Below are positions 1 to 56,289 of a DNA stretch of 57,837 nucleotides, one piece after another. The notes beneath the pieces were generated by a model that worked only from the letters and a program-made list of their open reading frames with translations, did not search any database and was not told where the DNA came from. This DNA comes from a virus. Taxonomy: Duplodnaviria; Caudoviricetes. The translations under genes were made by a program, and so were the position numbers. The DNA lies in IMG/VR virus record IMGVR_UViG_3300042923_000257, positions 1 through 57,837 of that record, one strand, 5' to 3'. Position 1 is the first letter of the stretch. Each line of letters starts with the position of its first letter.

Positions 1-22
1 GATCGAAGGAAGGCGCCCCCGG
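1..22. repeat. 22-bp direct repeat (copy 2 at 57751-57772); circular overlap of the assembled genome
   Basis: GATCGAAGGAAGGCGCCCCCGG is identical at 1-22 and 57751-57772. Confidence 0.9.
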
Positions 23-76
23 CGGGTCCTCGTCGCTCTTTCTAACGCATTACCCCATGTATGTGCGTGCGTGTGC

Positions 77-392
77 GAATGAATGAATAAACGCCGGCAG
101 GTGCCAGGCAATAACATCCGAGCATTCGGGCATAGCCCATTAGGAATGTGTGCATTCATTCATTAGAATGCGAATGCATGAGGGAATGAGGCTAGGTCGA
201 CTTGAGGTCGACCCCCTGTCGATGCCCTGTCGACTAGGTGTCCCTGTCGGGCCCGGTAGTCCGTGCCGGCCCCCTGTACGGCCGACTCCTGTGTACGTGG
301 CTCCCCTGTACCCCTTGACAGAGATACGGTGTGTGGGGTATACGCGTGCGCGCACGTTCCTATATACACAGCAGGGGCTAGGGCCCTGTACC
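77..392. repeat. Short-motif arrays (GAAT/ATTC tandem units; CCCTGT(C/A) iterations)
   Basis: gaatgaatgaat at ~77-88, cattcattcatt at ~153-165, and about six CCCTGTCG/CCCTGTAC copies between ~212 and 392; no credible ORF. Confidence 0.6.
315..344 (+). promoter_or_regulatory. Candidate housekeeping-sigma promoter
   Basis: TTGACA-18 nt-TATACG upstream of the early module; -10 imperfect. Confidence 0.4.
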
Positions 393-466
393 GGCCTAGG
401 GGCCGGCCCCCGTCGACGCCGGCACCACAGTGCCCCTGAACGAATGAAAGAAAGATGCGCTCCCAG

Positions 467-479
467 GTTGAATCGAGAC
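467..479 (+). promoter_or_regulatory. Repressor operator/stoperator site
   Basis: GTTGAATCGAGAC, genome-wide repeated motif. Confidence 0.8.
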
Positions 480-553
480 TGCCAACCGTGCTCTAATAGG
501 GGTGTGCCCGGAGGAACGGCACCCGACAGGGGGCCTAGTACGAAGGCAGCACT

Positions 554-580
554 CGTTCCACAGTCAACTGAACAGCGTGC
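554..580 (+). promoter_or_regulatory. rrn-leader/boxA-like element
   Basis: CGTTCCACAGTCAACTGAACAGCGTGC resembles the Streptomyces rrn leader CGTTCCTTGAGAACTCAACAGCGTGC (recalled, not searched). Confidence 0.5.
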
Positions 581-587
581 TAAGCAA

Positions 588-911
588 AGCAAGATCCTAT
601 AGGCGAGTAAGAGCCGGCTAGTAGGAAGAATGACGCGCCGTATACCGCGATAGTCCCTAGGGAGCTACGGGAGCTTTGATCTAGGGGTTTCAAAATGGGG
701 CAACCTGGCAGACACAGTCTGTCGCATGTCGAGAAGGTGTCGACATGGCGAACACCCGCCATCGCCTAACAGATCTTGCTCATACCCTAAGCGTCAGAAC
801 ATTCCCCGCGGCCCCTAAGGGGGCCGACATGAGAGGGTAGGGCCTACTAGCCGGCCCTAGTCCACAATGAAGGCTAGATGCACCACACAAGAGGGATGAC
901 GGCCCTAGGGT
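588..911 (+). ncRNA. Putative large structured leader RNA with two multi-stem domains
   Basis: Closing helices AGCAAGATC..TAGGCGA (588-606)/TCGCCTA..GATCTTGCT (762-780) and ACCCTAAG-CGTCA (784-796)/TGACG..CTAGGGT (897-911), each enclosing several hairpins. Confidence 0.5.
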
Positions 912-923
912 TGTAAACCTCAG

Positions 924-990
924 TAGGTATGCAGTAAGAGGGTAGCCGGTCCGCATCATGCCGGCCCGGGTGCCCACTTACCGTCGCCTA
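924..990 (+). repeat. Long hairpin element, copy 1
   Basis: TAGGTATGCAGTAAGAGGGTAGCCGG...CCGGGTGCCCACTTACCGTCGCCTA; homologous to 1131-1195. Confidence 0.7.
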
Positions 991-1004
991 CAACAGGAGG
1001 AATC

Positions 1005-1133
1005 ATGGAAGACAACACGGCTGAATGGGCACAGTCTCCCCTCACTGAATGGGAGCGTGACCTTCTGGCACTGGACATGTCGGACGTCCCTGTGAGGGAC
1101 ACTACGGCAGACGAGAACATTGCAGCACAGTAG
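1005..1133 (+). CDS. 42-aa acidic micro-protein (MEDNTAEWAQSPLTEWERDLL...)
   Basis: AGGAGG RBS at 995-1000, ATG..TAG; below the ORF-track cutoff. Confidence 0.7.
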   Translation: MEDNTAEWAQSPLTEWERDLLALDMSDVPVRDTTADENIAAQ

Positions 1134-1195
1134 GTAAGCGGTATCGGGTAGCCGGCCCACCCCGAGTGGTCCGGATGCCCTCTTACTGTCGCCTA
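1131..1195 (+). repeat. Long hairpin element, copy 2
   Basis: TAGGTAAGCGGTATCGGGTAGCCGG...CCGGATGCCCTCTTACTGTCGCCTA. Confidence 0.7.
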
Positions 1196-1196
1196 G

Positions 1197-1209
1197 GTTG
1201 AATCGAGAC
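1197..1209 (+). promoter_or_regulatory. Operator/stoperator site
   Basis: GTTGAATCGAGAC. Confidence 0.8.
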
Positions 1210-1214
1210 ACACA

Positions 1215-1493
1215 ATGCCCATTTGGATCACAGCCGTAGTCATGGCACTGGTCTACATCTCCGGAGTTCAGGCACTGAGCATGCCGGCCCGGAACATCAC
1301 GGAGCATCACTCTCAGGACAGCATCACGGATGCGGCTGAATGGGACGCATTCCACGCTGAGGCTTATGAGGAGTACGCCGCAGAGTTCACCGCACTCTAC
1401 AACGGATACGAGACCCGGTGGAGTAAGAACAACCGGCTCATGATCCGTAACGGGGACAGTGGTCCGTATAAGTTCGTCAAGCGTGCAGCCTGA
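1215..1493 (+). CDS. Hypothetical phage protein (start may be ATG 1281)
   Basis: ORF in the early operon; C-terminus ETRWSKNNRLMIR..YKFVK looks protein-like. Confidence 0.65.
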   Translation: MPIWITAVVMALVYISGVQALSMPARNITEHHSQDSITDAAEWDAFHAEAYEEYAAEFTALYNGYETRWSKNNRLMIRNGDSGPYKFVKRAA

Positions 1494-1506
1494 GGAGGAG
1501 AAAGCA

Positions 1507-1668
1507 ATGAGTGACGTCTACTGTTTTGAGGACGGACAACTCGTATACGGCAGGATCATTGCTACTGGTGGCCGACGAGGTGACCTTTACACCATTCAGT
1601 GGGATGACGGAATGCAGACGGATGAATGGAGCGACACTGAGGGCTCCTACTGGTGGTGGGCCGAGTGA
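1507..1668 (+). CDS. Hypothetical protein
   Basis: GAGGAG RBS, ATG 1507, overlaps next start (GTGA). Confidence 0.7.
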   Translation: MSDVYCFEDGQLVYGRIIATGGRRGDLYTIQWDDGMQTDEWSDTEGSYWWWAE

Positions 1669-1847
1669 ACGCGGAATTCATTGCATGGTTGGTCGGGACG
1701 GACGTCAGTGACGTAGTGGCCTACCGGGACGTAGCCGACTGGCCCACACATTGGGCCGCTAAGGCACAGCACCACATGCGGGCCCTTGGTATCGGGAGTG
1801 AGCACGAAGCACTTTCGGTGTTCCGCTCCCGTTACTACTACGGCTGA
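1665..1847 (+). CDS. Hypothetical protein
   Basis: Translationally coupled GTGA overlap. Confidence 0.6.
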   Translation: MNAEFIAWLVGTDVSDVVAYRDVADWPTHWAAKAQHHMRALGIGSEHEALSVFRSRYYYG

Positions 1848-1861
1848 CGCATACCCGCATA

Positions 1862-1874
1862 GTTGAATCGAGAC
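1862..1874 (+). promoter_or_regulatory. Operator/stoperator site followed by a GC hairpin
   Basis: GTTGAATCGAGAC then GGCCCCTGGA-T-TCCAGGGGCC. Confidence 0.8.
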
Positions 1875-1910
1875 TAGGCCCCTGGATTCCAGGGGCCGGC
1901 AGGAGCAAGC

Positions 1911-2231
1911 ATGAACGTGACACAGGTATTCGCAGAATTCTGGGCACTCTACTCCGGTAAGCGGGAAGTCCTGGGGCATGCACTCATTTCCCATGATCCG
2001 TATGACCAATTTGCCTGGTGCCAAGGGTGGCGTTTCGCTATTGCGGGTTACCTCACCTTCCAAAAGGGTGAGTCCGTTCCCGACTTCCGTCCGGCCCCTA
2101 GTGGTCCGGAAGACACGTATGAGTATGAGGAACTCCTGCACATCCGGCCGGATACTGACGCACTTTGGTACGCGTTCAACGTTCTGAGCCGGTACCGCGA
2201 ATGGCTCCGCATTGCAGGAAAGGACTACTGA
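1911..2231 (+). CDS. Hypothetical phage protein
   Basis: AGGAG RBS, 106-aa ORF. Confidence 0.75.
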   Translation: MNVTQVFAEFWALYSGKREVLGHALISHDPYDQFAWCQGWRFAIAGYLTFQKGESVPDFRPAPSGPEDTYEYEELLHIRPDTDALWYAFNVLSRYREWLRIAGKDY

Positions 2232-2393
2232 GTGAACGAACGCATGCTCGGAGTGTGTGGCATGGCCGGTACGGGTTGTTCACCAAAGTGCCGGCGTACC
2301 CACAAGCCTAAGCCTAAGAGGAGCAAGAGGGCCCAGCGCTCTTACGAAAAGGGCAAGTGGCGTAAGTCCATCAGTAAGTACCTGAGCCGTTAG
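2232..2393 (+). CDS. 53-aa very basic Cys/Lys/Arg-rich peptide
   Basis: GTG..TAG fills the gap exactly; ...CSPKCRRTHKPKPKRSKRAQRSYEKGKWRK. Confidence 0.55.
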   Translation: MNERMLGVCGMAGTGCSPKCRRTHKPKPKRSKRAQRSYEKGKWRKSISKYLSR

Positions 2394-2404
2394 GAGAGTG
2401 CATC

Positions 2405-2590
2405 ATGCCCGTTTCTCTGGTCAAGGATCTGCCTAAGTGGCAGTACTTCCACAACGACGGGGAGCCGGTACCGGAGCACATTCTGATGAGTCGCCGGTAT
2501 GACAACGGCGCCCGGATTTCACAGGAATGGGGGTACTACTTGCGCAACAACGACTTGTGTGAATTGCAGGAGTACTACCGACACGGCTGA
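2405..2590 (+). CDS. Hypothetical protein
   Basis: AGGAG RBS, 61 aa. Confidence 0.7.
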   Translation: MPVSLVKDLPKWQYFHNDGEPVPEHILMSRRYDNGARISQEWGYYLRNNDLCELQEYYRHG

Positions 2591-2681
2591 TTCGGTCGGG
2601 CGAATGGAGGTGGACAGACCCTTAGGGGTCTGTCTGCCGCATTGACCCTATCGGAACTAGCAGGAAGCAAGGGGTAAGGCA

Positions 2682-3092
2682 ATGAGCGAAACGCGTGAAC
2701 ACTGGACACTGTGGGTCTGCACGAATTGCATTATGCATCACGCAAACGGTGAGTGCGGAGACTGCCACAACCCGGACGGACATGAGGGGGGCGAACCCCT
2801 GAGCAAGGTGGATTACACCCGCTCCGCGGCCGGCATGTTTTCCGAAGAACATGACGACACTTGCATGCGTAAGTGCTCGTGCACTCAGGATGACGACTGT
2901 GAAGAGCACGGTGAAACGGACCCGGTAACGGGAGACTCCCGAGACTCACAGCACCATGACGCATCCGATCATGTCTGCCCGGATGACTACGAGTGCGACT
3001 GTGAGACGAGCACATTCAGCACGAGCACTTGCGACGGGTGTGGCAGTGAGTACCACGGTGAGCGGCACGCCATGACGGAATGGAGCAAGTGA
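2682..3092 (+). CDS. Cys/His/Asp-rich putative metal-binding protein
   Basis: CTNC, CGDC, CDGC and many His in 136 aa. Confidence 0.7.
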   Translation: MSETREHWTLWVCTNCIMHHANGECGDCHNPDGHEGGEPLSKVDYTRSAAGMFSEEHDDTCMRKCSCTQDDDCEEHGETDPVTGDSRDSQHHDASDHVCPDDYECDCETSTFSTSTCDGCGSEYHGERHAMTEWSK

Positions 3093-4009: not shown

Positions 4010-4018
4010 CGCCGGCTA

Positions 4019-4031
4019 GTTGAATCGAGAC
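4019..4031 (+). promoter_or_regulatory. Operator/stoperator site followed by a GC hairpin
   Basis: GTTGAATCGAGAC then GGGGCCCGG-ACAA-CCGGGCCCC. Confidence 0.8.
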
Positions 4032-32207: not shown

Positions 32208-33044
32208 ATGAGCCGAGACATCACCACACAGCCGCGGTCTGTCTCCCAGACTGAGCAGTACGAGAAGTGCAGTTGGCAGTTCTATCTCCAGCGAGTTGAG
32301 CGGGTCGTCCCTCGGCCGGCCGCCTGGTCCTTCCAGGGCACGGCCTTCCACTCGGCCGCGGAGAAGTTCGAGAAGGAGTTCAGGGAGCCCACGGCAGAGG
32401 AGATGGTCCAGCTCTTCTCCGACCAGTACAGCGCCATGGTGAACAAGGCGATGGACCAGGAGCCGGATCTGAACCGGTGGATGACTGCCAACAAGAAGCC
32501 TGCCGGCCAGGACATCGAAGAGCGGTACGCCCTGGGGCAGAGTCAGGTAGCTCGGTATGTCGAGTGGTCCAACGAGAACGAACCTGAGATCTGGGTGGAT
32601 GGCGAGGGTTGGAACGGGGCGGACATCTCGGAGGCTCCGACCAACCCCAAGATGGGCCTGGAGCTGTACTTCAAGGTCGAGTTGGGAGGCGTGGTCGTCC
32701 GTGGCTACATTGATCAGCTTCCGTACGACGGAGGCCCTGGAACCGTGAGGGTTCGGGACCTGAAGACCGGAAGCACCAAGTCCGAGTTCCAGCTTCAGAC
32801 GTACAAAGTCGCCGTGGAGAAGCAGTTCGGTCTCACGGTCAACCGAGGGGACTGGTACTTCGGCAAGACTGGGGGCCTGTCCAAGGCTGTCGACCTCTCC
32901 GAGGTGACGGAGGAACAGGTAGCAGCTCGGTATGTGGAGATGGACCAGGGCGTGAAGCGGGGAGACTTCCCGGCGAAGCCGGGCTTCCACTGCAATTTCT
33001 GTGACGTGAGCCACGCTTGCACTTTCAAGCGGACTCGTAGTTGA
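32208..33044 (+). CDS. Cas4/RecB-like PD-(D/E)XK exonuclease
   Basis: RSVSQ..QYEKC, GTAFH, GYID, DLKTG, QL.TY, C.FCDV...C. Confidence 0.88.
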   Translation: MSRDITTQPRSVSQTEQYEKCSWQFYLQRVERVVPRPAAWSFQGTAFHSAAEKFEKEFREPTAEEMVQLFSDQYSAMVNKAMDQEPDLNRWMTANKKPAGQDIEERYALGQSQVARYVEWSNENEPEIWVDGEGWNGADISEAPTNPKMGLELYFKVELGGVVVRGYIDQLPYDGGPGTVRVRDLKTGSTKSEFQLQTYKVAVEKQFGLTVNRGDWYFGKTGGLSKAVDLSEVTEEQVAARYVEMDQGVKRGDFPAKPGFHCNFCDVSHACTFKRTRS

Positions 33045-33069
33045 ATCGAGACAGGAAGTCTGTCATACT
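33040..33069 (+). promoter_or_regulatory. Operator overlapping promoter -35
   Basis: GTTGAATCGAGAC; TTGAAT-17-CATACT; second site GTTGAGTCGAGAC at 33122. Confidence 0.8.
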
Positions 33070-36417: not shown

Positions 36418-36717
36418 ATGAAGACGAACAAGCGCACGAACCCCACAGGCTTCGGAATCCAGAGAGACATCACGGATGACGGAGCGGTCCTCTACCTCAG
36501 GATCACGAACCCCCGCCGGCTGAACACCAAGTCCCTCGGAGAGGTTCTCGTCCGCTACCTTCAAGGTGGATTCGAGACACTGATTCTCGATCAGGGTCCC
36601 TTCAAGCGACAGAAGATGAAGCTCGTTGAGTTCCTTGGCCGGCTCCAGGCCAGTTTCAACGAAGGACAGCTTCTTTTTTTCGAGCGTAAGTTGAATCGAG
36701 ACCGTGTCTCGTTCTAA
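36418..36717 (+). CDS. Hypothetical protein (operator at 36690-36702 in its 3' end)
   Basis: GGAG RBS plus ATG; GTTGAATCGAGAC at 36690. Confidence 0.6.
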   Translation: MKTNKRTNPTGFGIQRDITDDGAVLYLRITNPRRLNTKSLGEVLVRYLQGGFETLILDQGPFKRQKMKLVEFLGRLQASFNEGQLLFFERKLNRDRVSF

Positions 36718-44774: not shown

Positions 44775-44794
44775 CCCACAGCACTGCACTCTAG

Positions 44795-44824
44795 GTTGAA
44801 TCGAGACCACATGTTCGTCATACT
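44795..44824 (+). promoter_or_regulatory. Operator overlapping promoter -35
   Basis: GTTGAATCGAGAC; TTGAAT-17-CATACT; shares GTCATACTGGAAGTAGG with the 33040 promoter. Confidence 0.8.
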
Positions 44825-52568: not shown

Positions 52569-54065
52569 TCAGGCAGCCTCGGTGAAGACAGGCTCTACCC
52601 GGGCAGCATCGAAGTTGGCTCCCCGGCTCTTGGCCGGGTGGATCAGGACCGCGGTGAGCACCGACCTGACCACCTCGCGCTGACGCTCCAGAGACAGCCC
52701 CTGCCATCCCTTCCGGATGACGTCCTCTTGGACGGGAGCCTGAGTCTCTGCCAGATGTAGGGCCCTCTCAGCCTTCAGCCTGTCTCGGTCAGACTCCAGG
52801 TCTTCCAGGGTGGCTACGTAGATGCTGGCTCGGATCTCCCGCTTCTCCCACTTCTGCTGGAGATCCTTGATCTCCTGCTGAACCTCGTCAAGCTCTGCCT
52901 GTTTGGTCCACTCGGTGTCCTTCTTGACCTCCAGGCCGACCAGAGACCTTTCCACCGTGGCCCAGACGAGCTGACGGACCATCTTGTCTACTGGGGGACC
53001 AGTGATCTGCATACGCCCGCACTCGTCCGCCTGCCTCTTCTGGCAGGAGTAGGCGTAGGTGTCCGTCTTCTCGCCCTTCTGCCAGACCGGGGCCCCATGC
53101 ATCCGGGATCCACAACGGCCACACCGAGCGATGCCGGACAGGAGGTACTTCGTGGTGATGTCCGGCTTCGTCTTCTTCTGCCGACTGGCAATCTTGGCCA
53201 TGAGGGCTTCCCACTCGTCCACCGTGACGATGGGGGGCCAGTCACCCATGACGTAGTTGCCGTCCTTGTCCCTCATGGGCTCACCCTGGAACTTCAGGAT
53301 GCCGGCGTTACGGCAGCGCATGAGGACGCGACGGAAGTGCTCCCGGGAGAAGGGCTTACCCGTGCTGGGGTTGATGAGGTTCTCCTCAGCGAACCTCTCT
53401 AGGATTGTGGGGATGCGGTCACCTTGGATGAACCACTTGGTGCCACGGCGGATCATGTCCGCGGCCACGGGGTCCAGCTTCAGGCGGTCCTCAGGATCCC
53501 AGCCGAAGGCCGGCGTCCCTCCGTGGAACTCCCCCTTCTCCGCCATGCGCTTGGCCTCACGCCTGATCCGGCGTCTGGTGTCCTCAGAAGACTTGTTGGC
53601 GATGGAGACGAAGAGCCGAGCAGAGAAGCGGCCATCCGGGGTGTTCAGATCGAAGTTCTGGCCGGACAGGCCATCGAAGATCAGGTACCGGCCCTTCTCG
53701 TTGGCTCCCTCGTAGATGTCGATAGTTCGCTCAAGGTCCCGCGGTTGGCGGGTGTAGCGGTCGATGTCGTAGTAGAGGATGCCGTCCAGGGCCCCAGGCT
53801 TGGGGAGATCCTTCAGGAGCTGTTCGAAGCGCTTGCGCTTCACGCTCCGACTGAAGGCGGAGAGGTTGTTGTCCTCGTACCAGACGATCTCGCCGGGGGA
53901 GTAGCCGTGTCTCTCAGCAAGGGCTACGACGTCATCCTTCTGCTTCAGGACGCCCTTCCGTTCCCGCTCCTGGCCTTCCTCCTTGGTGATGTCTCCGTTC
54001 CTGACAGCACGTCGGATCTCGGCTAGGTCGGCATCGGAGATGCGCAGGTACCCTGCAATGGGCAC
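52569..54065 (-). CDS. int: Large serine integrase
   Basis: YLRIS catalytic motif, D...SA...R..FE.LL, DR..R, recombinase domain, LLSG...CG.CG Zn ribbon, coiled coil. Confidence 0.95.
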   Translation of the reverse strand: MPIAGYLRISDADLAEIRRAVRNGDITKEEGQERERKGVLKQKDDVVALAERHGYSPGEIVWYEDNNLSAFSRSVKRKRFEQLLKDLPKPGALDGILYYDIDRYTRQPRDLERTIDIYEGANEKGRYLIFDGLSGQNFDLNTPDGRFSARLFVSIANKSSEDTRRRIRREAKRMAEKGEFHGGTPAFGWDPEDRLKLDPVAADMIRRGTKWFIQGDRIPTILERFAEENLINPSTGKPFSREHFRRVLMRCRNAGILKFQGEPMRDKDGNYVMGDWPPIVTVDEWEALMAKIASRQKKTKPDITTKYLLSGIARCGRCGSRMHGAPVWQKGEKTDTYAYSCQKRQADECGRMQITGPPVDKMVRQLVWATVERSLVGLEVKKDTEWTKQAELDEVQQEIKDLQQKWEKREIRASIYVATLEDLESDRDRLKAERALHLAETQAPVQEDVIRKGWQGLSLERQREVVRSVLTAVLIHPAKSRGANFDAARVEPVFTEAA

Positions 54066-55026: not shown

Positions 55027-55236
55027 CTAGACGAGGCTGCCCTTCTGCACGGCGCTGATGAAGCTGCCCCAGGCGGTGTCAGCGAAGACGACCGCGGGGC
55101 CGGCAGGGGCCTTGGAGTCCCGGACAGGCATAGCCGCGGGGATGGCTCCGTGAGCCACCTCAACACAGTCGTTACTTCCTCCGCTGTAGCTGGACTTGGT
55201 CCAGCCGTTCAGTGCGGATGCATTGTCGATGATCAT
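55027..55236 (-). CDS. DUF397 (BldB/Scr2-like) protein
   Basis: W.KSSYS....CVEVA....VRDSK...GP...F....W..F. Confidence 0.95.
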   Translation of the reverse strand: MIIDNASALNGWTKSSYSGGSNDCVEVAHGAIPAAMPVRDSKAPAGPAVVFADTAWGSFISAVQKGSLV

Positions 55237-56087
55237 TAGATCGCGTCCTTCAGTTGTTCAATGAGGTTGGCCGATTCATCGAGAGGCAAGGCCGCGGCAC
55301 GTAGATGCTCGTAGGCCGAGCCGTATCGACTTACTTCCGCAGGATCCTCCACATACAGAGCACTCGTCAGGGACTCAACCAGGACAACGTCCAGGTCTGC
55401 CGTCTCCGGGAAGCCGATGACAGCGAATGAGCCGCTCATCCCGACGTGCGGGGGAGCGTCCAGAGGCAGTACCTGTATCGAGACGTGCGGAAGCTCTTGT
55501 TTGTCCAGCAGCCATTGGAGCTGCTCCTTCATCATCCCGGGGTCGCTCTTCAGGTGAGGGTGAAGAGCTGCCTCATGGATGACTGCCCACAGCTCCAGAG
55601 GCTCCGGGCGGGATAGGACCGACTGACGAGCCCGGCGAACGTCTACCAGGGAGTTCACCTGTTCAGGCGTGGCAGTCATGTTGATTGCGCTGATGGTGGC
55701 GCGGGCGTAGGCCGCGGTCTGAAGCAGGCCCGGGATGAGCGTGGCTTGGTAGGTCCGCAGGTTGACTGCGTCATCCTCCAGGCTGATCAGGTCTTCGTAG
55801 GCCGGGGAGATGATGCCGCGGTAGGTCTGCCACCAGCCGCGCTTCTTACCGTCCCGGGCGAACATGTGGAGGGCATCCCGCTTCTCCGGGTCGGTGATCT
55901 CGTAGAGGTCCAGAAGAACATTGAGGTCAACCGGCCGGATCCCCAGCACGGCCTTCTCAACCCTGCTGACCTTGGACGGAGTTAGGTCTGTTTGGGCTGC
56001 TACGTCGTCCAGCTTCAGGCCCTTGGCTTCCCGGGCTGTCCGCAGCTCGGAGCCGAGTCGACGCGTCCGAACCGTGGGCTCTGCCAT
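55236..56087 (-). CDS. XRE-HTH + DUF5753 regulator (WhiJ/Scr1-like)
   Basis: RRLG.ELR..RE, GWWQ.Y, IPGLLQT..YARA, R..RQ..L, E.AL, IQV.P. Confidence 0.93.
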   Translation of the reverse strand: MAEPTVRTRRLGSELRTAREAKGLKLDDVAAQTDLTPSKVSRVEKAVLGIRPVDLNVLLDLYEITDPEKRDALHMFARDGKKRGWWQTYRGIISPAYEDLISLEDDAVNLRTYQATLIPGLLQTAAYARATISAINMTATPEQVNSLVDVRRARQSVLSRPEPLELWAVIHEAALHPHLKSDPGMMKEQLQWLLDKQELPHVSIQVLPLDAPPHVGMSGSFAVIGFPETADLDVVLVESLTSALYVEDPAEVSRYGSAYEHLRAAALPLDESANLIEQLKDAI

Positions 56088-56289
56088 GCGCACCCCCTTC
56101 TACCTGTCCATTCTTCGCCCAACTCTGGTGCGTGGCTACAGCTTTCCACAGTCGGCCAGACCATGCCCTGATCCGACTGCAATTTTGCTGAGTTGGTTCA
56201 ACGGGTTGCATCCGGGGTACGACTTTGGACACACTGTTAGTGCCAGTCCGCGTACAGTGGGTGATCACATGCAGGGATTAGGAGGCGCC

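Follow-up and report, generated by a model that had tools for sequence, protein, structure and literature searches.

The IMG/VR virus record IMGVR_UViG_3300042923_000257 is, at its full length of 57,837 bp, the window analysed here, and our subject is a stretch of some 500 nucleotides (nt) near its left end, positions 480-1004 on the plus strand, which an earlier note, made from the letters alone, had described as a long structured non-coding leader. The early genes of this phage run rightward from about 480 to about 8.6 kb, and its structural genes lie on the minus strand. A serine integrase (52569-54065, minus strand) and a DNA-binding protein with HTH_31 and DUF5753 domains (55236-56093, minus strand) are also present, and these two point to a temperate phage. 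Blastn gave a single named DNA relative, Streptomyces phage Ibantik, whose right end matches the left end of the window in reverse complement; megablast found no relatives. The leader appears to be assembled largely from imitations of a host ribosomal RNA (rrn) operon.

No credible open reading frame (ORF) lies in 480-1004: the largest one wholly within it in the ORF list has at most 65 amino acids (aa), and the indels that separate this leader from that of the closest relative, the IMG/VR contig L011 (9, 2, 5, 41, 1, and 2 nt), are mostly not multiples of three. Inside the range 480-1210 that the earlier note gave for its leader, 1005-1133 is a real small gene of 42 aa on the plus strand, listed among the ORFs and provided with an AGGAGG ribosome-binding site. 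It is kept in contig L004 (71% nucleotide identity) and as the C-terminal part of an ORF in contig L013, and it has no PHROG family. The folding signal claimed for the plus strand is there: 480-1004 folds at -204.4 kcal/mol, against -184.9 +/- 6.8 kcal/mol for shuffled sequences (z -2.85, with 0 of 100 shuffles as good), and the minus strand of the same interval has a z of -0.64, with 27 of 100 shuffles as good. This signal is unevenly spread along the plus strand, with z-scores of +0.36 for 498-594, -1.43 for 624-749, -2.21 for 797-862, and -2.65 for 888-924. The two hairpin elements discussed below reach -5.54 (922-993, 0 of 200 shuffles as good) and -2.85 (1129-1198).

A profile hidden Markov model (HMM) of 12 Streptomyces rrn leaders, run with nhmmer, finds positions 498-594 (E 2.3e-6) as its sole match in the 57.8 kb, and it matches 8 of the 15 targets searched, including 8 of the 9 Ibantik-like leaders. 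Along these positions we recognise, on the plus strand, the anchor GCCCGGAGG, a boxB-like hairpin at 518-535 with a GACA loop, the block AAGGCAGC, and a boxA/boxC-like motif at 554-580; the names boxA and boxC are those we take to apply to this actinobacterial motif. In an alignment of 11 phage and 8 rrn sequences, 21 columns are invariant, among them GCCCGGA, AAG..AG, and AACT..A.AG.G, and all 24 phage and rrn sequences compared have a hairpin of at least four pairs between the two anchors, its stem differing from one sequence to the next and its loop often being of the GNRA type. Read side by side, the Streptomyces and phage leaders are alike over about 100 nt and keep the same order of parts: a variable hairpin, the AAGGAAGC block, the boxA/boxC-like motif, a short hairpin, and then CCCCG with a variable hairpin and GAGG. 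In its boxA region, the window keeps CGTTCC and AACT.AACAGCGTGC, and the Ibantik-type relatives keep the other half. As far as sequence comparison goes, these data establish that 498-594 is homologous to the Streptomyces rrn leader.

The motif is at home on both sides. On the host side, the 17-mer TTGAGAACTCAAYAGYG, common to the leaders of Ibantik and contig L005, occurs in at least 120 contigs of a collection with one genome per prokaryote species; among the matches listed, 78 of 80 are actinobacterial by name, and many lie at contig ends. In all ten host loci checked with Rfam, the motif stands 109-212 nt upstream of 16S on the same strand. On the viral side, the same 17-mer is found in at least 120 IMG/VR contigs, with a 16S 5′ end within 400 nt in 0 of 120 occurrences, and the Streptomyces leader HMM recognises 39 of 119 such loci. 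When a Streptomyces rrn leader was used as the query, it matched 87 GenBank Streptomyces phage records (Likavirus or R4-like phages, such as Lannister, Zemlya, Hydra, and Izzy, plus Ibantik); each of the 87 matches is on the minus strand, no more than about 1 kb from the right end of its genome, and nearly all are unannotated.

Downstream of this homologue, a second imitation was found on the plus strand at 624-749. A covariance model (CM) search with cmscan aligns this block with the Rfam large-subunit model RF02541 at 40.5 bits (E 4.9e-11, with only 361 nt, 600-960, searched), below the gathering score of 50 and covering positions 47-179 of the 2925 of the model, that is, part of domain I of 23S rRNA; 624-749 is a fragment copy, not an rRNA gene. 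The comparison with Rfam depends on how much sequence is searched: the rRNA match stands in the 361-nt search, but a search of 1-3000 at E<=10 returned only chance matches to sR2 and Esr41. Likewise, L011 gave no rRNA match in a 65-kb Rfam batch, and its positions 590-715 scored 36.9 bits when searched alone. Methods that do not use Rfam agree. Blastn of 400-1300 against four Streptomyces rrn operons gave two sense-strand matches, one to 23S and one to 16S, the former pairing 645-711 with 23S positions 66-135 (76-77% identity over 70-71 nt, E 2e-9 to 9e-8). An HMM of the whole operon, run with nhmmer, finds 627-723 (E 4.4e-9) and the 23S piece of L011 as well; beyond the 23S and 16S pieces, it finds nothing in the genome.

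The copy has diverged in sequence and kept its pairs. Canonical pairs occupy 35 of the 37 model pairs in the window and 34 of 37 in L011; the helix at 655-686 has two compensatory pairs relative to host 23S, and a compensatory change at 727/745 is seen in a metagenome variant (run X4). The block contains five hairpins (634-649, 655-686, 697-706, 707-723, and 725-747), of which 655-686, 707-723, and 725-747 had already been noticed from the letters. Between the window and L011, the leader is 86% identical overall, with only two changes in 624-724. In Ibantik and L005, the place of the block is taken by a short hairpin, AGATC-aat-GATCT, the block having entered the loop of the hairpin that follows boxC. 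We found the 23S piece in three close relatives only, namely the window, the L011 contig, and the X4 contig; neither a 23S-like nor a 16S-like piece is present in GenBank phages, and the 119 IMG/VR loci that carry the leader motif contain no rRNA-body piece. That the 23S piece is conserved and shows compensatory changes speaks for a function. Leaders of ribosomal-protein operons, in autoregulation, imitate rRNA binding sites in mRNA, and the present leader likewise carries a structural imitation of rRNA; the difference is that those are short mimics in cellular operons with little sequence identity, and this is a 126-nt multi-helix block with a score of 40.5 bits on the 23S model, in a phage leader.

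The module that follows, at 797-862 on the plus strand, comprises CATTCCCCG, a hairpin at 809-826, GAGAGGG, and a hairpin at 838-859; by reading, its first part parallels the ACCCCG, variable hairpin, and GAGG of the host rrn leader. Hairpin 809-826 has four fully compensatory pairs relative to L011 and a further compensatory change at 813/822 in metagenome run X3, and its counterpart in Ibantik and contig L265 has a different stem sequence. A third imitation lies at 891-921, where 29 of 31 nt (93.5%, E 9e-8, blastn, same strand) match 16S at about positions 398-430, corresponding to positions 403-433 of the Rfam small-subunit model RF00177 and to what we take to be helix 16 (helix numbers of 16S and 23S, and the proteins that bind them, are used here as we understand them). 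Nhmmer extends the match to 858-940 (E 2.2e-6); cmscan aligns all pairs, but at 12.5 bits and E 0.16. Elsewhere, this piece was seen in one short contig of run X2 (836-926, six differences); L011 and Ibantik lack it, X3 skips it, and it looks recent and dispensable.

The earlier note had seen two closed domains that it could not assign to any known family. Such assignments can now be made: the 5′ part of the leader is an rrn leader homologue, the interior of Domain 1 is 23S-like, and part of Domain 2 is helix 16 of 16S. Every helix and hairpin it named is present. Domain 1 (588-780, plus strand, from complementarity and the centroid fold) is closed around the 23S-like module by 588-606 with 762-780, as 9 and 7 pairs around a 3x3 internal loop; Domain 2 is closed by 784-796 with 897-911; and hairpins 655-686, 707-723, 725-747, and 809-826 can all be drawn. 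What did not survive is the pair of domains as a conserved architecture: in L011, Ibantik, and two metagenome variants, the closing helices have gone, by loss or deletion, or are broken. A 9-nt deletion leaves about seven possible pairs of the Domain 1 closing helix in L011, and all three changes that the X4 contig has in this helix (600, 775, and 780) break pairs. The full-length minimum free energy fold does without the Domain 2 closing helix, 891-921 folding locally, and the 3′ strand of that helix sits within the helix 16 copy, which is missing in L011 and Ibantik and skipped in X3. Both closing helices thus lack conservation, and the pair of closed domains is peculiar to this one sequence rather than a conserved design. 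The alternative pairings imagined between TAGGCGA (at 600) and TCGCCTA (at 762, 984, and 1189) fare no better: the words are there, they are not conserved, L011 having CAGGCCA in that place, and the TCGCCTA words at 984 and 1189 belong to the hairpin element, whose conserved 3′ end they form. Further copies of Domain 1 were sought with short patterns: an 18-mer in IMG/VR matched the L011 contig only, a 20-mer in metagenomes had no match, and a third pattern led to L264 (partial), L265 (a full relative without Domain 1), and L266 (unrelated).

The twin hairpins of the earlier note proved real and related to each other, as two copies of one covarying element on the plus strand. The diverged copy (922-993; 42.6 bits and E 2.7e-9 with our covariance model R1) closes the leader just before the first ribosome-binding site, and the canonical copy (1129-1198, 70.9 bits) follows the 42-aa gene, whose TAG stop is its 5′ base. 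The window and its ten relatives (11 loci) supply 23 copies, which align as three stacked helices of 19 pairs; 96.3% of the cells are paired, against 82.5% in shuffles and 39-54% when the partner is slid. Ten pairs have changed on both sides, and the covariation of 0.529, against 0.266 in shuffles, was reached in 0 of 500 of them. G-U pairs are many: one position is UG in 21 of 23 copies, and read from the opposite strand such a pair becomes A-C; the element therefore works as plus-strand RNA. Often the TAG at its 5′ end doubles as the stop codon of the preceding gene, and a ribosome-binding site or a 14-bp repeat stands at its 3′ end. Model R1 finds exactly two copies in the window, none elsewhere in the 57.8 kb, and two to five in the full relatives; the elements are confined to the first kilobases of the early operon. 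It finds none in three rrn loci and two Likavirus loci, and blastn of the element against 120 rrn loci gave no match. An inner G+C-rich stem is followed by a T-rich 3′ arm (CTCTTACTGT), and a terminator scan calls one copy in Ibantik and one in L017. The early region of T7 has RNase III hairpins between its cistrons. Like these and like intrinsic terminators, the element of the window is a stem of about 60 nt, with conserved internal loops, repeated between a stop codon and the next ribosome-binding site; it differs from intrinsic terminators in the unusual sequence conservation of its outer stem and in the weak T tract of the window copies.

Instead of the Ibantik-type element, the early genes of Likavirus phages are separated by tRNA-like pieces, made of a T-arm GGTTCGAGTCC and an acceptor-like stem (2125-2170 in the Hydra locus and about 1225-1270 in the Lannister locus). 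The pieces match the mascRNA model weakly (E 0.32) and are possible sites of processing by RNase P/Z.

Ten related early regions were gathered through protein and pattern scans: Ibantik, eight IMG/VR contigs (L003, L004, L005, L011, L013, L016, and L017, plus further copies of the same contigs), and the metagenome contig L265. Blastn of the window leader against 50,697 phage records gave Ibantik only, plus a short GiJojo match outside the leader. These regions share a common plan, with an upstream TTGAC(A/G)-18-TATACG pair, a conserved ATGAATGAAAGAAG block, and a 14-bp repeat, then an untranslated leader of 300-520 nt and small genes, each separated by a hairpin element of about 60 nt. The first gene after the second hairpin of the window, at 1215-1493 (92 aa), encodes a protein conserved in 11 IMG/VR loci, which among phages matches Ibantik only. 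In a second, related phage from the probable source sample (run X1, record 2), 270 other letters replace 579-832, so the site after boxC seems to be a hot spot for cassette exchange. Run X2 is labelled metatranscriptomic but is probably DNA; its three 151-nt contigs on 836-926, 1192-1342, and 1398-1462 are uninformative on expression. A look-up of RNA runs listed none that contains the region.

Upstream of the leader, we read from the sequence a sigma-70-like pair, TTGACA-18 nt-TATACG (317-346, plus strand), as a candidate for the first promoter of the early operon. The arrangement is kept in L003, L004, L011, and L013, and a strict consensus scan passed over it on account of the last base of the -10 hexamer, which is not T. 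In Lannister, a TTGACA-17-TAGAGT promoter lies directly 5′ of the rrn-like leader, and in the Ibantik-type relatives TTGACA-17-TAnnnT is seen by eye, uncalled by the scan.

The asymmetric 14-bp repeat GGTTGAATCGAGAC has its first copy at 466-479 and its second at 1196-1209, 5 nt before the ATG of the 92-aa gene, both on the plus strand. At up to two mismatches, it occurs 17 times in the window, where 0.52 copies are expected; besides the two just named, copies lie at 1861-1874, 4018-4031, 33039-33052, 36689-36702, and 44794-44807, and ten more complete the total. The orientation of the copies follows the local genes, with 14 on the plus strand within plus-strand gene blocks and 3 on the minus strand within a minus-strand block. 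Many asymmetric sites that follow gene orientation make up the repressor-stoperator pattern of Cluster A mycobacteriophages and R4-like Streptomyces phages, according to PMC10276819. The repeat is thus operator- or stoperator-like, and the copy at 466-479 is most likely the binding site of an immunity repressor, for which the HTH_31/DUF5753 protein is a candidate. The central dinucleotide of the repeat varies from phage to phage (AT in the window and L011, CA in Ibantik and L005, TT in L003 and L013, AA in L004, and the GACATGCGAC type in L016 and L017), as if the immunity specificities of a repressor-stoperator system were diverging. In Ibantik, L005, L016, and L017, the TTGACA of the first repeat stands 17 nt before a TAnnnT hexamer. 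We considered the repeat as a -35 box at every copy and rejected this, as only copy 1 has a well-spaced -10-like hexamer, and in some relatives only.

Other features of the region deserve a mention. Between the genome end and the upstream promoter-like pair, 205-312 holds about eight CCCTGT(C/A)-like words in 100 nt, which may be candidate protein binding sites. Runs of GAATGA/CATTCA words, such as AATGAATGAATAAAC and CATTCATTCATTAGAATGCGAATGCATG, occupy 55-190 and 440-456, with ATGAAAGAAAG directly before the first 14-bp repeat; similar runs are kept near the genome end in Ibantik, L004, and L265. As to the rrn-like leaders of other phages, Lannister (400-420 of its locus) and Hydra (413-430) show another boxC-like word, AACTCAACAGCGGG, which follows a further promoter-like pair and precedes the main leader by about 200 nt; this would parallel the tandem promoters of host rrn operons. 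Ibantik gene 107 (85 aa; 406-663 of its locus, 55700-55957 of the record) runs antisense across the rrn-like leader and is probably a spurious call.

Imitation of host rRNA as a means of antitermination is textbook knowledge for phage Lambda. According to PMC2724277, the boxA and boxC of rrn leaders nucleate Nus complexes, boxC being a specific NusA site in M. tuberculosis, and the nut sites of Lambda place an rrn-related boxA and a hairpin in the early transcript, so that host Nus factors carry polymerase past terminators. The window has the same arrangement, a predicted early transcript with a boxA-like motif and a hairpin, and differs from Lambda in that its likeness to the host leader extends over about 100 nt or more rather than boxA alone, in that no N-like protein is evident, none having been searched for, and in that its host is Gram-positive with a high G+C content. 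The host rrn leader itself precedes 16S rRNA, and the phage leader precedes protein-coding early genes; in the window, the short hairpin after boxC has also been enlarged by the 23S-like insert.

Another parallel is offered by Cluster A mycobacteriophages, in which the Pleft RNA of L5, D29, and StarStuff, downstream of the early lytic promoter, is described in PMC5712189 as a non-coding RNA of about 500 nt that is made in abundance, is stable, undergoes processing, and harms the host as a toxic product; some 90% of the transcripts end at its 3′ end. It shares with the window a right-end leader of about 500 nt devoid of a conserved ORF, in a phage group with asymmetric repressor sites; R4-like Streptomyces phages, which also carry the rrn-like leader, use a repressor-stoperator system, as stated in PMC10276819. 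The Pleft RNA has no blastn similarity to the window leader, its function is unexplained, and no rrn likeness is reported for it in the passages of PMC5712189 consulted.

With these systems in mind, we read about 480-1004 as the untranslated leader of a Pleft-like early operon, built from imitations of a host rRNA operon, nut-like and recruiting Nus factors, and we put the probability of this reading at roughly 0.65. The boxA-like motif noticed earlier is present, and antitermination, one of the options of the earlier note, appears on sequence grounds to be the best supported. Once 498-594 is transcribed, host NusB/NusE, NusA, and NusG, perhaps with SuhB and S4, would gather on the emerging RNA in the way they do on pre-rRNA and turn the polymerase into a fast, termination-resistant form. 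Such a polymerase would cross the untranslated stretch of about 500 nt without Rho termination and read through the terminator-like hairpin elements into the early genes; in a lysogen, the immunity repressor bound at 466-479 would shut the leader off. It is plausible, though only by analogy, that the leader is the first RNA made on infection and under repressor control, as the earlier note had supposed. As for the 23S-like and 16S-like modules, they may be there to bind ribosomal proteins, to make the RNA more stable, or as a decoy.

Several observations weigh against this antitermination reading. The stretch 498-594 lacks unusual stability (z +0.36). Its boxA-like block is half diverged, CACAGTCAACT standing where the host has CTTGAGAACT and being one base longer, and only AACT..A.AG.G of this block is invariant in the alignment of phage and rrn sequences. 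Contig L004 carries the motif, yet the leader HMM misses it. The consensus scan called no sigma-70 promoter in 1-2500, and neither window copy of the hairpin element was called as a terminator, the T tract being too weak; these elements could be processing or stability elements instead. The copy of an rrn promoter and leader could also serve growth-rate control, not antitermination. Finally, a mycobacterial rrn leader matched no phage by blastn; the idea therefore fails to transfer to the one relative group with RNA data, and we make no claim that the Pleft RNAs of Cluster A are rrn mimics.

Among the alternatives, the leader might yield an abundant, stable RNA acting in trans, which, as an imitation of pre-rRNA, would titrate Nus factors, ribosomal proteins, or the factors that assemble and process rRNA and so damp host ribosome synthesis, most transcripts ending at 922-993. 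The agreement with the Pleft RNA in position and size, the presence of three separate rRNA-operon imitations in one leader, the strong conservation of the 23S-like module between the window and L011, and the very stable hairpin that closes the leader would all suit such an RNA, which is also compatible with antitermination in cis. The window leader has no likeness in sequence to Cluster A, however, matching Ibantik only, and most relatives lack the 23S and 16S modules, which therefore cannot be the core function of the leader; we consider a trans-acting role unlikely. Another possibility is that these modules are neutral debris: the rrn-like leader would offer homology for recombination with host rrn operons, illegitimate events would have left fragments behind, and only the rrn-leader part and the hairpin elements would be functional. 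The pieces are not collinear with the operon (leader, 23S, leader-like, 16S); the 23S piece is limited to the window, L011, and X4 and the 16S piece to the window and one X2 contig; the latter is so close to the host as to be recent, and is deleted in L011 and X3; and the relative from the same sample swaps out 579-832 altogether. On the other hand, the 23S piece, at about 77% identity, keeps all but two of its model pairs, has compensatory changes against host 23S and at 727/745 in X4, and forms the most conserved stretch of the leader between the window and L011. Neutral debris is a serious though minority explanation.

Two further explanations have far less in their favour. The region could encode small proteins, such as the 60-aa ORF at 580-762 on the minus strand, which is open in the window and in L011 (57 aa), and genes 106 and 107 of this kind are annotated in the equivalent region of Ibantik, the latter on that strand across its leader. 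By our reading, though, nearly every difference from L011 at the two ends of the 60-aa ORF is non-synonymous, and its middle is identical at all codon positions; its ATG is lost in X4 (761 A>G), and L011 starts elsewhere with TTG; no usable spacing to a ribosome-binding site is seen; and a 23S rRNA copy lies on the opposite strand of a leader whose indels mostly break the frame. Of the four small ORFs searched in PHROGs, including 580-762 and 780-977 (both minus strand), none has a family, and we regard a coding role as highly improbable. The hairpins could also act as DNA, in packaging, as a cos site, as a replication origin, or as protein sites near the genome end, which is less than 1.2 kb away, and several of them are palindromic and equal on both strands (797-862 has z-scores of -2.21 and -2.35). 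The strand asymmetry of the overall folding, the dominance of G-U pairs at several positions of the hairpin element, the restriction of high-scoring CM matches to the plus strand, and a homology in the sense of transcribed rRNA-operon RNA make this hardly credible.

A more ambitious extension of the antitermination reading is that the leader is a mini pre-rRNA, in which Nus recruitment is joined by 23S and 16S copies that bind early ribosomal proteins or rRNA-assembly and processing factors. S4 binds near helix 16 and is a cofactor of rrn antitermination. The bound proteins could join a phage-specific complex of RNA polymerase and chaperones, or the copies could be a decoy that diverts them from host ribosome synthesis. 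We hold this idea tentatively and think it rather less probable than not; if true, it would give a testable function to the long-unexplained abundant Pleft RNAs of actinophages.

In the open-access literature, we found no description of an rrn-like leader or of an rRNA fragment in actinophages. Far from stopping at boxA, the imitation takes in about 100 nt of the host's rrn leader and is conserved at the right genome end in 87 GenBank records of Streptomyces phages, and a diverged, pair-preserving copy of 23S helices in a phage mRNA leader has no precedent in the literature searched; if functional, it would be a new form of host mimicry. The rrn-like leader and the hairpin element are possible expression parts for Streptomyces engineering. 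For the phages themselves, the nut-like reading would provide a concrete and testable mechanism of early expression in the largest group of Streptomyces phages, and it may give a first clue to the puzzling, abundant RNAs from the right end of Cluster A mycobacteriophages.

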